Assembly (NCBI GenBank): GCA_963664375.1
Contig: OY761449.1
Coordinates: forward strand, 1,547,087-1,611,086
DNA length: 64,000 nt
DNA from: Dehalococcoidia bacterium
GTDB lineage: Bacteria; Chloroflexota; Dehalococcoidia; Lucifugimonadales; UBA3495
Reading direction: 5' to 3'
Shown: positions 12,133 to 58,340 of the stretch, one piece after another
Numbering within the stretch: the first letter of the stretch is position 1
Layout: every line of letters begins with the position of its first letter
Notes under the pieces: generated by a model
Databases searched by the model: none
What the model saw: the letters and a program-made list of their open reading frames with translations, nothing else
What the model was told of the DNA's origin: nothing
Position numbers and translations under genes: made by a program

Positions 12133-12304
12133 GGTATTCTCAGTATGTGTTGGTATTCCCATGTAGGGGCGCACAGCCGTGCGCCCTGGCCCCGGTTCCA
12201 GCACAATTCTCTCCTGCGCAGACACGGGCGCACGGCTGTGCGCCCCTACGCGGCGGGGCCAAGCAGACAAATCGCATCCAATAACAGCACATGTTGAGAA
12301 TGCC
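12133..12304 (+). mobile_element. MITE copy A (172 bp; 25-bp TIRs; 8-bp TSD GCCAGCGG)
   Basis: Left end ggtattctcagtatgtgttggtatt, right end aataacagcacatgttgagaatgcc. GCCAGCGG is present at 12125-12132 and again at 12305-12312. The interior holds two GGGGCGCAC-N4-GTGCGCCCC hairpins around a ~40-bp core. Confidence 0.85.
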
Positions 12305-12425: not shown

Positions 12426-13352
12426 CTACGCGCGGGGGTGACTCTTTTCGTATTCCTCCCGCATGTAGGGGTCGGTCAGGTGCGTGTAGACCTGGGTGGT
12501 CGAGATGCTGGAGTGCCCCAGCAGTTCCTGGACGTGGCGCAGCGACGCGCCGTTCTGGAGCAGATGGGTGGCGAAGCTGTGGCGCAAGGTGTGGGGCGTG
12601 ATGCTCGTCTTGATTCCGGCGGCCTGGGCGTAGTTCTTGAGCACCGACCAGACCCATTGCCGGGTCAGGCGTTCCCCGCGGTGGTTCACGAACAGGGCCT
12701 GCTCGTCCTTTCGCTTGCCCAGCAACATGGGACGCGAGTTTCTCATGTAGTTCCTGAGTTCCTGCAAAGCCTTGGGGTAGAGATGCACGATGCGTTCCTT
12801 GGAACCCTTCCCCAGGCAGCGCACGTACGATTCCTCGGGGTTAACGTCGCCCACGTTCAGCGACACCAGTTCGCCGACCCGCAGCCCGGTGGCATAGAGC
12901 AGTTCCATCATCACCGCATCGCGCTGCCCTTCGTTGGTGCCGGGCTTGTAGCCCTCATCCAGCAGCCTGCCGATCTCTTCCTCGGTGAGGTACTTCGGCA
13001 GCGATCTGCCAACCTTGGGCGTGCCCAGTGACTCGGTCGGATCCTCGGTGATGATGCCGTTCTCCGCCATAAACCCAAAGAACGACTTGACCGAGGCGAC
13101 CTTGCGGGCAGTGGTGGCGTTCCGGTACCCCTTCCGTTCTCTAAGGTCAGTGATGTACAGGTTCAGGGTGTCGATACTGACGGAAGTCCAGTTGAAAGCG
13201 CTTGAGCCGTTTTCTCCCGCCTTGCCCACGCCATTCGGTTGGAGAAACTCCACGAATTGTGAGAGGTCGTTGCGGTAGGCAGAACAGGTGTTTTGGGAAA
13301 ATCCCTTTTCCACGAGGAGATGCTGAAGAAAAGACGACACAGTACGGTCCAT
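12426..13352 (-). CDS. site-specific tyrosine recombinase XerC/XerD family
   Basis: The N-terminal core-binding domain (FLQHLLVEKGFSQNTCSAYRNDLSQFVEFL) and the C-terminal LRHSFATHLLQNGASLRHVQELLGHSSISTTQVYTHL carry the catalytic R..H..R..Y pattern. Confidence 0.85.
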   Translation of the reverse strand: MDRTVSSFLQHLLVEKGFSQNTCSAYRNDLSQFVEFLQPNGVGKAGENGSSAFNWTSVSIDTLNLYITDLRERKGYRNATTARKVASVKSFFGFMAENGIITEDPTESLGTPKVGRSLPKYLTEEEIGRLLDEGYKPGTNEGQRDAVMMELLYATGLRVGELVSLNVGDVNPEESYVRCLGKGSKERIVHLYPKALQELRNYMRNSRPMLLGKRKDEQALFVNHRGERLTRQWVWSVLKNYAQAAGIKTSITPHTLRHSFATHLLQNGASLRHVQELLGHSSISTTQVYTHLTDPYMREEYEKSHPRA

Positions 13353-13516
13353 GGTGCGTATCCTTTCGCCGTAGCGTAAAACAGATGAACAAGTCATCAA
13401 TGGGACGATGCCTGTTCAGTACTTGAGGGGATACTAGCACACCTATGGATGTTCACTGCTATGGGACAAAAACCGGAATTTGACCAAATTAGAGTTCTGT
13501 CAACCATCGCCGGTAA

Positions 13517-23542: not shown

Positions 23543-23715
23543 GGCATTCTCAACGTGTGTTGGTATTGGACGCGATTTGTCTGCTTGGCCCCGCCGCGTA
23601 GGGGCGCACAGCCGTGCGCCCGTGTCTGCGCAGGAGAGAATTGCGACGGAACCGGGGGCCAGGGCGCACGGCTGTGCGCCCCTACATGGGAATACCAACA
23701 CACGTTGAGAATACC
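23543..23715 (-). mobile_element. MITE copy B (173 bp, opposite orientation to copy A)
   Basis: TIRs ggcattctcaacgtgtgttggtatt / aataccaacacacgttgagaatacc. The flanks tgggatag / tgggaaaa form a 6-of-8 degenerate TSD. Its reverse complement has the same arm and core arrangement as copy A. Confidence 0.85.
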
Positions 23716-23738
23716 TGGGAAAAGGGCAAGGCTTTTGA

Positions 23739-23776
23739 TTCTCCCTCTCCTTAAAGGGAGAGGGTTGGGGCGAGGG
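23739..23776 (-). repeat. REP1 hairpin element
   Basis: ttctccctctccttaaagggagagggttggggcgaggg. Confidence 0.75.
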
Positions 23777-23818
23777 AGACACCGCTGGTATCGGCAATTT
23801 TGCGGCCATATAGAGGAC

Positions 23819-23854
23819 GCCCCCACCCTAACCCTCCCCCGGAGGGAGAGGGAA
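23819..23854 (+). repeat. REP1 hairpin element
   Basis: ccccaccctaaccctcccccggagggagagggaac. Confidence 0.8.
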
Positions 23855-23863
23855 CTAAAGGCG

Positions 23864-30481: not shown

Positions 30482-30553
30482 AAACGTATGTGGGAACGCC
30501 TGCGATTATACCGCGAATATGAGGGCGGCCTAACACGTATCGGAAAATCTAGA

Positions 30554-30571
30554 GGCGCACGCAAGTGCGCC
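30554..30571 (-). terminator. terminator hairpin downstream of leuA
   Basis: GGCGCAC-GCAA-GTGCGCC lies 32 nt after the leuA stop and is followed on the minus strand by a tctagatttt tail. Confidence 0.55.
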
Positions 30572-30602
30572 CCTTTCAAACGACCTCGCTACTGTGCGTT
30601 GC

Positions 30603-36730: not shown

Positions 36731-37001
36731 AAAAAAACACCCATCCCAACATGAAGGGACGGGTGTGGGCCCGCGGTACCACCCTTCTTCCCCGATGCCC
36801 GGCAGTCTTATGCCGGGTCCGGGGCTGCTTTCGGACTCTGTAACGGTGTCACCCGCCGCGCCCTGCTGTCAGGATTCGATCCGGACCATCAGGCGGGCCG
36901 CTCCCGGGCGAGTTCGCGACGCTACTGCCACCGGCTCGCACCAACCGCCGGTTCTCTGACGCAGGCTACCGCTACTACTCCCGCTCAGCGCGGAATTTCG
37001 T
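36731..37001 (-). promoter_or_regulatory. T-box riboswitch leader (putative Leu, CUC specifier) with intrinsic terminator
   Basis: The minus strand reads ...GCGCUGAGCGGGAGUAG...CAGAGAA...UGGUGCGAGCC...GCAGUAGCGUCGCGAA-CUC-G... and then GAAGAAGGGUGGUACCGCGGG, the conserved T-box sequence (36770-36790). A 10-bp terminator stem CACCCGUCCC/GGGAUGGGUG and U7 (36731-36768) follow. Confidence 0.85.
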
Positions 37002-37007
37002 GGGGAA

Positions 37008-37036
37008 ATCTTATCAGCGCCCCTCCCCCGTGTCAA
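37008..37036 (-). promoter_or_regulatory. sigma70-type promoter of the ilv-leu operon
   Basis: The minus strand has TTGACA (37036-37031), a 17-nt spacer, then TAAGAT (37013-37008), directly upstream of T-box stem I. Confidence 0.6.
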
Positions 37037-37051
37037 CGAACAATTTGCCGT

Positions 37052-37224
37052 GGCATTCTCAACGCGTGCTGGTATTCCCATGTAGGGGCGCACAGCCGTG
37101 CGCCCCTGTCTGCGCAGGAGAGAATTGTGCTGGAACCGGGGGCCAGGGCGCACGGCTGTGCGCCCCTACGCGGCGGGGCCAAGCAGACAAATCGCGTCCA
37201 ATACCAACACACGTTGAGAATACC
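37052..37224 (+). mobile_element. MITE copy C (173 bp; perfect 8-bp TSD TTTGCCGT; core inverted relative to copies A and B)
   Basis: TIRs ggcattctcaacgcgtgctggtatt / aataccaacacacgttgagaatacc. TTTGCCGT is present at 37044-37051 and at 37225-37232. The core ctgtctgcgcaggagagaattgtgctggaaccgggggcca is the reverse complement of the copy A core. Confidence 0.9.
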
Positions 37225-37241
37225 TTTGCCGTTCAACGGCA

Positions 37242-37847
37242 TCAAATCAACATTTCAACACGGTCGAGTTCGCCCGCTACCGGATTCACGTTGAACCCCA
37301 GCGATTCGAGAGCCGTGACACCCATTACCGTGGGGTCGCCGTCTTCGCCGAAGACCACCGTCACCCCTGCCACTTCGCCACCATAGGTCAGAATGACCGT
37401 TCCCGTGGCCCGCGTAATGAAGCCGCCGAAGCCTCGCAGCCTCCGCTGGCCGGTCCGCTGGATTCCCAGGCGGTCCAGCAGGCTGGCCGGGAAAACGCTA
37501 AGCGTAGCTCCGGCATCCACCAGAACGTTGACTTCCTCGGCGCTGCCCGGCGCCGATGGATTCGACAAACCGACGTTGACGTGAACGAAACCCATACTTA
37601 CAGCTCCAAGGGATGGTTTGACAGGGATACCCGCGAGCGGGTCGGAAAAGACTTTGCTTATAGGTTCGCACACCCCGGCCCTGTCCCCGCGCCCTTTGAT
37701 AGCGCCGAGATTAACGACCTTTCGGTCTTCCGTCCACTTTCTGCTCTGGAGGTAAGCAACGAGGGCTTTTGCGTCATGCCCGTGCTCTTCCGAGATGCTG
37801 TCTTTGATTCGCCAGAGTTCCCTGATGATTTCATCAGACATAACCAA
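37242..37847 (-). CDS. fusion ORF: antitoxin-like N-terminal segment plus retropepsin-like aspartic protease domain
   Basis: 201-aa uninterrupted frame. Residues 1-50 (MVMSDEIIRELWRIKDSISEEHGHDAKALVAYLQSRKW) resemble small partners of the upstream PIN family. Residues ~86-201 (MGFVHVNVGL...VLVDAGATLSVFP...LGFNVNPVAGELDRV) are paralogous to 17754..18113. Confidence 0.6.
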   Translation of the reverse strand: MVMSDEIIRELWRIKDSISEEHGHDAKALVAYLQSRKWTEDRKVVNLGAIKGRGDRAGVCEPISKVFSDPLAGIPVKPSLGAVSMGFVHVNVGLSNPSAPGSAEEVNVLVDAGATLSVFPASLLDRLGIQRTGQRRLRGFGGFITRATGTVILTYGGEVAGVTVVFGEDGDPTVMGVTALESLGFNVNPVAGELDRVEMLI

Positions 37848-38364
37848 AGTCTCCCATCAACTCGCGCGGGGAGCATATTTCAGGGCTGGTGCAACCTTGC
37901 TGAGCGCATACTTCTCGGACAATGGGTCTTGATGCCGCATTCGCAAGATGACGAAAATTCCAAGTCAAAAGATAATCTACACCATGCGCCGCTGACACAG
38001 CAATGTGAAGGGCATCCGCTTCGGATCTCGCCGGGACCGCCCCGTTTTCCAGGAGCGCAACCATCAATCCGGTCACTCGCCCGGTGAGTGTCAGGATGGG
38101 AATGCCGTCCAATGCTTCAAGGCGGCGCGCAGCCGCTTGCGGGTCGCCCTTGCCCGCTTCCTCGATGGTTAGGTCGGAGGTATAGAGGTCGAACCGGGTT
38201 CTATGCGATTCCCACCAGTCAATTGTAATCTTTTGCCAGGCGGCCGCCAACAAGTCGCTCGAAGGCCGCGCCGTCAGATAAGACACGACTGATGTCTCGA
38301 TATAGACCGTGCGCTTGGGTATTTCCGTTCGTTCCGTGGAAGTTTCGCTGTCTGGAAGGAGCAT
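37834..38364 (-). CDS. PIN-like domain protein (VapC-type, TWNF.H motif family)
   Basis: VYIETSVVSYL...EADALHIAVSAAHGVDYLLTWNFRHLAN fits this family. Its ATG at 38364 shares one base with the upstream gene's TGA. Confidence 0.7.
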   Translation of the reverse strand: MLLPDSETSTERTEIPKRTVYIETSVVSYLTARPSSDLLAAAWQKITIDWWESHRTRFDLYTSDLTIEEAGKGDPQAAARRLEALDGIPILTLTGRVTGLMVALLENGAVPARSEADALHIAVSAAHGVDYLLTWNFRHLANAASRPIVREVCAQQGCTSPEICSPRELMGDFGYV

Positions 38365-38804
38365 CACGACTCCGCCGCATCCCGCCACATGGCGCAGCCG
38401 GTTGCGCCCAGGACCAGCGGCAGCAGAGTGTCCACCACCGCCCAGATTACCCACGCCTGGTGGTTGTTCGATTCAAGCCCCACCTTCAGGAAGGCAATCC
38501 AGTTGTGAAGGAACAGGATTGTGATCCCGGCCGTCAGGTAAAGGGCAACGTTTGCCTCCAGGTACCTGCGGGTGATCCCGTCGCCGGAATACTGGGAGTC
38601 CATCCTTCGCTTCCGGTCGAAATTGTATGCCAGTCCCACAACCAACCCAACCGCCATCAGGATGTCCAGGACGAACCAGACGTCCGACACGTCCAGGTTG
38701 TCGAGGAAAAGAATATTGATACTGAACCAGACGGCCACCGCCACGGCGACGCCTATCAGATATACCGCCCCCAGCCGTTTCAGCCCGGTCATGCCTGCCT
38801 CCAT
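38364..38804 (-). CDS. hypothetical integral membrane protein (about 4 TM helices)
   Basis: Hydrophobic segments GAVYLIGVAVAVAVWF, VWFVLDILMAVGLVVGLAY, ALYLTAGITILFLHNWIAF and VIWAVVDTLLPLVLGATG. Start chosen at MEAGMTG; the ORF extends to 38927. Confidence 0.5.
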   Translation of the reverse strand: MEAGMTGLKRLGAVYLIGVAVAVAVWFSINILFLDNLDVSDVWFVLDILMAVGLVVGLAYNFDRKRRMDSQYSGDGITRRYLEANVALYLTAGITILFLHNWIAFLKVGLESNNHQAWVIWAVVDTLLPLVLGATGCAMWRDAAES

Positions 38805-58316: not shown

Positions 58317-58340
58317 CGGGGCGCACAACTGTGCGCCCCG
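58317..58340 (+). terminator. terminator-like hairpin after D-aminoacylase copy 1
   Basis: CGGGGCGCAC-AACT-GTGCGCCCCG forms a 10-bp stem. It is the same module as the internal hairpins of the MITE. There is no strong T-run. Confidence 0.5.

Follow-up and report, generated by a model that had tools for sequence, protein, structure and literature searches.

The element upstream of ilvB

The window, i.e. the whole 64-kb stretch of DNA that was analysed, is part of a single 3.91-Mb contig with a G+C content of 62% (G000 below), and contains three copies, A, B and C, of a short repetitive element bounded by terminal inverted repeats (TIRs). Copy C is flanked by the T-box-controlled ilvB gene on one side and by an aspartic-protease-like gene and a PIN-domain gene on the other side. 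The -35 box of the predicted ilvB promoter is separated from the target-site duplication of copy C by 8 nt, so that the element lies directly upstream of the promoter of a regulated branched-chain amino-acid operon. The module at the center of copy C is a REP-like doublet that consists of a GTAG-hairpin, a spacer (the core) and a hairpin-CTAC, and is set between two asymmetric arms that mark the polarity of the element. The relevant features, in window coordinates, are as follows.

36752-36997, minus strand: T-box leader 5' of ilvB (Rfam RF00230, 98.7 bits, above the gathering score)
37008-37036, minus strand: sigma-70-like promoter, TTGACA-17-TAAGAT
37044-37051, no strand: left 8-bp target-site duplication of copy C, TTTGCCGT, with its partner at 37225-37232
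37052-37076, plus strand: left TIR of copy C, 25 nt, 88% complementary to 37200-37224
37077-37081, plus strand: short arm of copy C, CCCAT, an asymmetric polarity mark
37082-37105, plus strand: left inner inverted repeat of copy C, the REP-like unit GTAG-GGGCGCAC-AGCC-GTGCGCCC, a hairpin by itself
37106-37145, plus strand: core (REP-doublet spacer) of copy C, 40 nt, in the rare flipped orientation
37146-37169, plus strand: right inner inverted repeat of copy C, the REP-like unit GGGCGCAC-GGCT-GTGCGCCC-CTAC, a hairpin by itself
37170-37199, plus strand: long arm of copy C, GCGGCGGGGCCAAGCAGACAAATCGCGTCC, 30 nt, an asymmetric polarity mark
37200-37224, plus strand: right TIR of copy C, 25 nt, pairs with the left TIR
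37242-38454, minus strand: region upstream of copy C, with the aspartic-protease-like gene and the PIN-domain gene
12133-12304, plus strand: copy A, 172 nt, standard core, duplication GCCAGCGG
23543-23715, minus strand: copy B, 173 nt, standard core

The two inner repeats of copy C, 37082-37105 and 37146-37169, are complementary over all 24 nt (100%). The hairpin pattern has 8 matches in the window, compared with none in 100 shuffles.

Copies A and B share the layout of copy C, and their core is the reverse complement of the copy C core, with the exception of one C/G indel and the junction base. The earlier note on this DNA had claimed that the core occurs in both orientations relative to the arms, and this holds: the core of copy C is reversed relative to those of A and B, with the arms unchanged. 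The same note had argued that the loops of the flanking hairpins stay fixed while the core flips and, on these grounds, had placed the breakpoints in the inner hairpin arms, which is a logical error. Since AGCC, the sequence of one loop, is the reverse complement of GGCT, that of the other, inversion of the whole 88-nt module looks identical to inversion of the core only, the constancy of the loops is uninformative, and the window data alone cannot place the breakpoints. A haplotype in which the entire module is inverted (see below) points to outer breakpoints.

Census of the MITE family

The copies were located genome-wide with blastn-short and hairpin patterns, and pairwise alignment was used as well. 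About 120 genomic loci have these termini, and 97 copies carry the core, in the following forms.

Standard core, 173 nt: 49 copies
Standard core, 189 nt: 39 copies, with a 20-nt loop, denoted E, in place of GGCT in the long-arm-side hairpin
Flipped core: 7 copies, all of the 173-nt type
E (long-loop) hairpin on the short-arm side, core standard: 2 copies

The shorter forms comprise 111-120 nt, with one complete GTAG...CTAC hairpin, or 83-88 nt, without any. When the orientation of the core is catalogued in all the core-bearing copies, a check that had been proposed in advance, 7 of the 97 are found to be flipped, at six loci (G000 coordinates 1584138, which is copy C, 1759149, 2967118, 3912533, 3412384 and the tandem pair at 1963544-1963850), far from a 50:50 proportion (p ~ 1e-19). 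The flips are confined to copies with a perfect 24-nt inner repeat (7/56 vs 0/41, Fisher p = 0.02); here, cause and effect are not separable, as a template-switch flip would itself create the perfection. The core has never been found outside the MITE frame in G000.

The family is assigned to MITEs on the strength of the TIRs, the target-site duplication of fixed length, and presence/absence polymorphism with an intact empty site. The two 8-bp duplicates match perfectly in 47 of the 100 paired copies and with no more than one mismatch in 69, compared with 0 of 100 in a shifted control. A non-exhaustive search of the solo and long-range TIR matches in the genome yielded no transposase ORF bounded by matching termini. 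Elements whose interior is different and contains CCCGTCATTCCGGCGAAAGCCGGAATCC are bounded by these terminal repeats as well (G000 381092, 607944, 741081, 1173612, 1291117, 2209020 and others), so a single set of termini is apparently common to several non-autonomous families. At G000 509823, there is an 824-bp element that has both termini. Among the genomes of the genus that were examined, the complete TIR element is present only in G000, and in two other species (G018 and G020), the flanks of copy C align, with no element at its position.

The same insertion in coexisting strains

Exact-protein look-ups with IlvB and LeuA led to four contigs of the metagenome assembly ENA ERZ21830300 (L025-L028), which are strain-level haplotypes of the window organism, with most of the flanks differing by 1-3%; the look-ups with the PrpD-like, OadA-like, FAD oxidoreductase, LLM oxidoreductase and GroEL proteins returned no matches. 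In all four contigs, the element occupies the identical site, with the duplication and the arm orientation unchanged compared with copy C. Two of these haplotypes (L026 and L027) carry the flipped 173-nt form, as in the window, whereas the other two (L025 and L028) carry the standard 189-nt form, in which the right inner hairpin has the 20-nt loop in place of GGCT, so that, altogether, three haplotypes are flipped at locus C and two are standard. Given that the site and the duplication are the same and the core is not, the orientation of the core changed in place, after the insertion. We infer the direction of this change, from standard to flipped, from the commoner form, without an outgroup.

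Among the three flipped haplotypes, the difference amounts to 2-5% within the adjacent 2 kb and 1.4-3.2% elsewhere, whereas that between the flipped and the two standard haplotypes is 9-10% in the same 2 kb. Because haplotypes that are 2-5% apart retain the same orientation, the flip has been stably inherited over a period that is long by the measure of strain divergence. At G000 2967118, the copy is flipped, as it is in another haplotype (L032). The orthologous comparison between haplotypes covers seven of the 97 loci.

An artefact of assembly or polishing that reverses a short palindrome-flanked segment would have the same appearance, and palindromic repeats are indeed hard for some assemblers. 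The chance that the flip is of this kind is nevertheless negligible: the flipped form is present in two more independently assembled contigs with different flanking SNPs (L026 and L027), the standard form in two other haplotype contigs, and, with its 173 nt, the element is well within any long read. Four sequencing runs contain locus C as k=31 contigs; these contigs end at the edges of the element, and the 'opposite strand' joints originate from other copies. Several weakly matching sequencing runs are sponge metagenomes.

The region upstream of copy C (37242-38454) differs by 9-10% between the two haplogroups among L025-L028, compared with 1-3% in the other flanks, and the gene calls differ as well. 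Strain divergence or exchange has a local hot spot in this region.

Loop replacement, module inversion and collapse

Orthologous loci also differ in the size of the element. Depending on the haplotype, locus B (23543-23715) contains the 173-nt form, the 189-nt form or a collapsed form of 83 nt. The junction of this collapse, CATGTAG/GGGCCAAGC, is identical at locus B in L025 and at 3096379 in G000, and a near-identical 83-nt collapse, with one substitution, is found at the recA-proximal locus in L029; this junction is thus shared by three independent loci, and its position is that of a GGGGC microhomology at the long-hairpin base. Near ftsH, the 83-nt form in G000 corresponds to the 173-nt form in L033, and another orthologous locus has a 40-nt internal deletion. 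Two of the 83-nt collapses are on one haplotype contig (ctg716373l). The GC-rich repeats CCCTCTCCC...GGGAGAGGG that adjoin copy B (23720-23860) vary in number between haplotypes.

The recA-proximal locus (G000 1759149) is occupied by a flipped 173-nt element in G000 and a collapsed one in L029, is empty in L030, and in L031 contains an element in which the whole module, including the E hairpin, is inverted relative to the arms. In L031, the long-loop hairpin is inverted along with the core, so breakpoints in the outer arms do occur. The comparison of L030:1830-2125 with G000 1759000-1759470 reveals an intact empty site with one copy of CGGAACGT. With the element present in G000, L029 and L031, this implies that the family has been mobile within the divergence of coexisting strains.

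REP-like doublets in the genome and the genus

The GTAG-GGGCGCAC-NNNN loop-GTGCGCCC-CTAC units are represented in G000 by about 70 singlets and, additionally, by inverted doublets around unrelated spacers of ~38-42 nt. The REP-like matches in the window include those at 58319-58338 and 30553-30572. A second REP family (GTAGGGGCGCCCCTTGTGGGCGCCC) has the same construction, with doublets of ~92 nt. The hairpin unit, single and in doublets with other spacers, is found in many genomes of the genus, and both REP families are genus-wide. The architecture of REP/BIME/REPIN sequences matches that of the module (PMC3337134, PMC3116915), and GTAG-headed units are also known as the SMAG REPs of Stenotrophomonas (via PMC3184786). 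With respect to the REPIN-RAYT family, the GTAG-headed inverted doublets are present, and the cognate Y1 (IS200-like) RAYT transposase (PF01797) is missing: there is no match in G000, and the 40 genomes of the genus, G000 included, yield a single marginal hit of 21.8 bits, with the control genomes being positive. Because the defining RAYT gene is absent from the genome and the genus, the module is called REP-like here and is not filed in the RAYT-REPIN family.

These observations bear on the possibility that the module is itself a mobile, REPIN-like element that, in either of its orientations, enters and leaves short MITE frames at their GTAG/CTAC site. Hairpin doublets with unrelated spacers are indeed free-standing in this genome and in other species of the genus, MITE frames exist without the module (83-88 nt) or with a single GTAG...CTAC hairpin (111-120 nt), and symmetric REP singlets that derive from doublets by central excision have been described for REPINs (PMC3337134). 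At G000 3676942-3677063, the left TIR and the short arm, which make up half of a MITE frame, continue at GTAG into a doublet of the second REP family, and the long arm and the right TIR are missing; this arrangement could be accommodated as well, and looks like a product of REP-to-REP recombination. Independent mobility of the module is nevertheless distinctly improbable: apart from the one marginal hit, no Y1/RAYT transposase is detectable in this genome or in the 39 other genomes of the genus, G000 contains no instance of this core without the MITE frame around it, and the 83-nt junction at the GGGGC microhomology is the expectation for hairpin slippage rather than for precise excision.

Origin of the flipped copies

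With the core turned back, the flipped copies are 96-99% identical to their nearest relatives, all of which are standard copies. In a phylogeny that comprises 77 copies, 5 tips are flipped and 5 changes are required to account for them, the same number as with shuffled labels; the topology is star-like, none of the branches is strongly supported, and the tree alone is weak proof. Being scattered on the tree and this similar to the standard copies, the flipped copies do not form one of two old, diverged subfamilies. The inversion junctions fall at the ends of the repeat arms. The flipped tandem copy at 1963544-1963850 combines the diverged long arm, L2, with an L2-type core, CCAGCCCAATT, whereas the other flipped copies are of the L1 type. 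Because this copy is L2 in both the arm and the core, at least two of the inversions were independent, and only two such events, one in L1 and one in L2, are strictly demonstrated. A rare junction base, C, is common to copy C and the copy at 1759149, i.e. it is found in 2 of the 7 flipped copies, compared with about 1-3 of roughly 54-88 standard copies, which hints that some of the flipped loci could be of one origin rather than products of independent inversions.

In the extreme version of this scenario, one ancient inversion would have produced a flipped master copy, and all the flipped loci would have originated from it by transposition or by conversion of the module, with no inversion at copy C itself. 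The shared junction base would be readily explained in this case, as would the consistently flipped state of the recA-proximal and 2967118 copies among the haplotypes in which they are present; furthermore, modules are replaced in place (173, 189 and 83 nt at one locus), which makes conversion from a flipped donor plausible at locus C. Such a history is unlikely, although by no means far-fetched, because the L2 tandem copy flipped independently of the L1 copies, the flipped copies have no derived substitutions in common beyond the junction base of the two copies, their TIR variants belong to different sublineages, and they adjoin different standard copies on the tree.

Neighboring genes and regulatory signals

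The earlier note had proposed a rearrangement between internal inverted repeats, and this part of its reading stands; its further suggestion, an active invertible switch, fares poorly in view of the skewed census, the stable inheritance, the lack of a recombinase that would accompany the copies and the lack of a promoter in the core. A programmed switch would involve a site-specific recombinase that acts on the hairpin repeats and flips the core, with phase-variable control of the neighboring genes as the outcome. Some of the evidence fits such a device: the core is bounded by perfect inverted repeats (24 nt around 40 nt), the population contains both orientations at a single insertion, and copy C is positioned 8 nt from the -35 box of the ilvB promoter. 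We consider it very improbable all the same, given that 7 of the 97 copies only are flipped and that the orientation is constant within haplogroups that are 2-5% apart as well as at locus 2967118. The search for an invertase or recombinase gene near copy C found none, the neighbors being the aspartic-protease-like gene, the PIN gene and ilvB, and no recombinase gene was found to accompany the copies elsewhere; the genome-wide survey, which covered serine recombinases, detected one gene, at 2.7155 Mb, and none of the flipped copies lies near it. A consensus scan, which is weak evidence, found no promoter-like or terminator-like sites in the core; the sole promoter-like site is outside the element, at 37036-37008. 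Rfam models match nothing in the element at threshold, with sub-threshold look-alikes of microRNA hairpins only. Moreover, copy C differs from the standard form at its locus not only by the flip but also by a non-conservative replacement of the 20-nt loop, and an invertase does not give rise to such a change.

The distance between copy A, a copy with the standard core, and a XerC/XerD-like tyrosine recombinase gene (12426-13400, minus strand) is ~120 nt; uvrC is on the other side. Given the ~120 copies in the genome, this adjacency is probably a coincidence.

A more speculative scheme, which we regard as a long shot, would have the hairpin doublet as the substrate of an unrecognised hairpin-specific enzyme, other than Y1/RAYT, that excises, flips and exchanges REP units inside and outside the MITE frames in this genus of uncultured, apparently sponge-associated bacteria, such that promoter-adjacent flips, as at the T-box-controlled ilvB, would tune expression at the population level.

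A probable passive, structure-driven flip

The reading that we prefer, with a probability of about 70%, is that this MITE of ~120 copies and 173/189 bp carries a REP-like doublet at its center, and that the core was flipped by a rare, passive event driven by DNA structure and was then inherited as a mutation; the flip would probably have no function. As single-stranded DNA, copy C is predicted to fold into one long hairpin (-56.8 kcal/mol, z = -6.9), as would be expected of a perfect 24-nt inverted repeat with the arms 40 nt apart, and, in such a hairpin, the spacer could occasionally be inverted without a dedicated enzyme. As with hairpin-mediated small inversions, the inverted segment is bounded exactly by repeat arms and the inversion recurs in independent lineages. 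The divergence from the consensus is 0.9-1.7% in the inner repeat arms, compared with 3.7% in the core, 3.4% in the long arm and 6% in the TIRs; mutual correction of the arms, or their correction from other copies, would be expected to result in such a two- to sixfold lower divergence.

There are three candidate routes to the flip, namely, a switch of template between the arms by the DNA polymerase during replication, recombination between the arms, and gene conversion, with another copy that pairs in the inverted register as the donor. In a template switch, the polymerase would copy the left hairpin, jump to the other strand, copy the core backwards along with the left hairpin, and jump back. 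A single event of this type would convert the standard 189-nt form into the flipped 173-nt form, which is exactly the difference observed at locus C. Alternatively, locus C could have been converted from an already existing flipped copy, a history favored by the shared junction base, or might have undergone a conservative inversion followed by a separate change of the loop, in which case L031 looks like an intermediate. The flip together with the loss of the 20-nt loop at locus C fits all three histories. The coupled loss of the loop was considered as an argument that would exclude conservative inversion; this argument was dropped, since loop changes are common elsewhere and a two-step history is plausible.

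The same instability would replace hairpin loops and delete the whole module at the GGGGC microhomology. Once made, a flip would be inherited like other mutations and could spread by transposition or by conversion between copies. Scaling the 7/56 flips against the mean divergence from the consensus of 3.6% suggests, under the assumption of neutrality, that the flip rate per element is a few times the substitution rate per site, which would be orders of magnitude below the rates of phase variation.

Significance

The asymmetric arms provide this element with a built-in compass, so that inversions between inverted hairpins, which otherwise are invisible, can be scored at ~100 loci and across coexisting strains. 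To a large extent, the 'size classes' of the MITE (83, 113, 173 and 189 nt) and its flipped form change into one another in place and do not represent distinct transposing subfamilies alone, which matters for the classification and dating of repeat families. The element is a natural system for measuring mutation driven by secondary structure (template switching, slippage and conversion) in an uncultured bacterium. In addition, REP-like doublets are documented here across a genus without the RAYT gene that is usually held responsible for them. The flipped core is not evidence of a new regulatory switch.

Comparison with known systems

Invertons, such as the fim switch and Hin/Gin, likewise consist of a short segment that is flanked by inverted repeats and exists in both orientations. 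Unlike these, the MITE core has no associated recombinase and contains no promoter, its orientation is strongly skewed and stably inherited, and the flip is accompanied by non-conservative changes.

The REP/BIME/REPIN sequences and the SMAG family resemble the module in being GC-rich, GTAG-headed palindromic units present in hundreds per genome. Further shared traits of REP/BIME/REPIN are the combination of singlets with inverted doublets, in which the length of the spacer is conserved and its sequence is variable, and symmetric singlets that can be obtained from doublets through the loss of the center. Unlike in the REPIN-RAYT system, there is no RAYT gene in the genome or the genus (one marginal hit notwithstanding), and the doublet is embedded in a transposon frame with TIRs and target-site duplications and multiplies with this frame.

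The Correia elements are bacterial MITEs that have been reported, in a 2017 study as cited in a review (PMC10969869), to invert in place by means of their inverted repeats. According to this citation, it is the whole Correia element that inverts, and the inversion may move promoters; in the family described here, the termini and the arms are fixed, only the inner module or core flips, and no promoter was found in the core.

The closest parallel to the reading that we prefer comes from small inversions in hairpins. Kelchner and Wendel reportedly described 'minute inversions' of chloroplast hairpin loops in 1996. Small inversions between inverted repeats and, in particular, template-switch events that invert hairpin loops in place are already established (PMC8794818, PMC5453318). 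In these events, as in the MITE, the reverse complement takes the place of a short segment whose ends coincide exactly with the arms of a perfect inverted repeat, and the changes are rare, recurrent and inherited, with loop replacements and homogenisation of the arms. The differences are that, in the MITE, 40 nt separate the 24-nt arms, which themselves are hairpins, that the segment resides within a multicopy transposon, whose asymmetric arms make the orientation scorable at ~100 loci, and that the route is one that we infer. What is new is the combination: the flip of an inner module in a fixed transposon frame, with ~100 scorable loci, polymorphic at one insertion among coexisting strains, and the frequent interconversion of the size forms in place.
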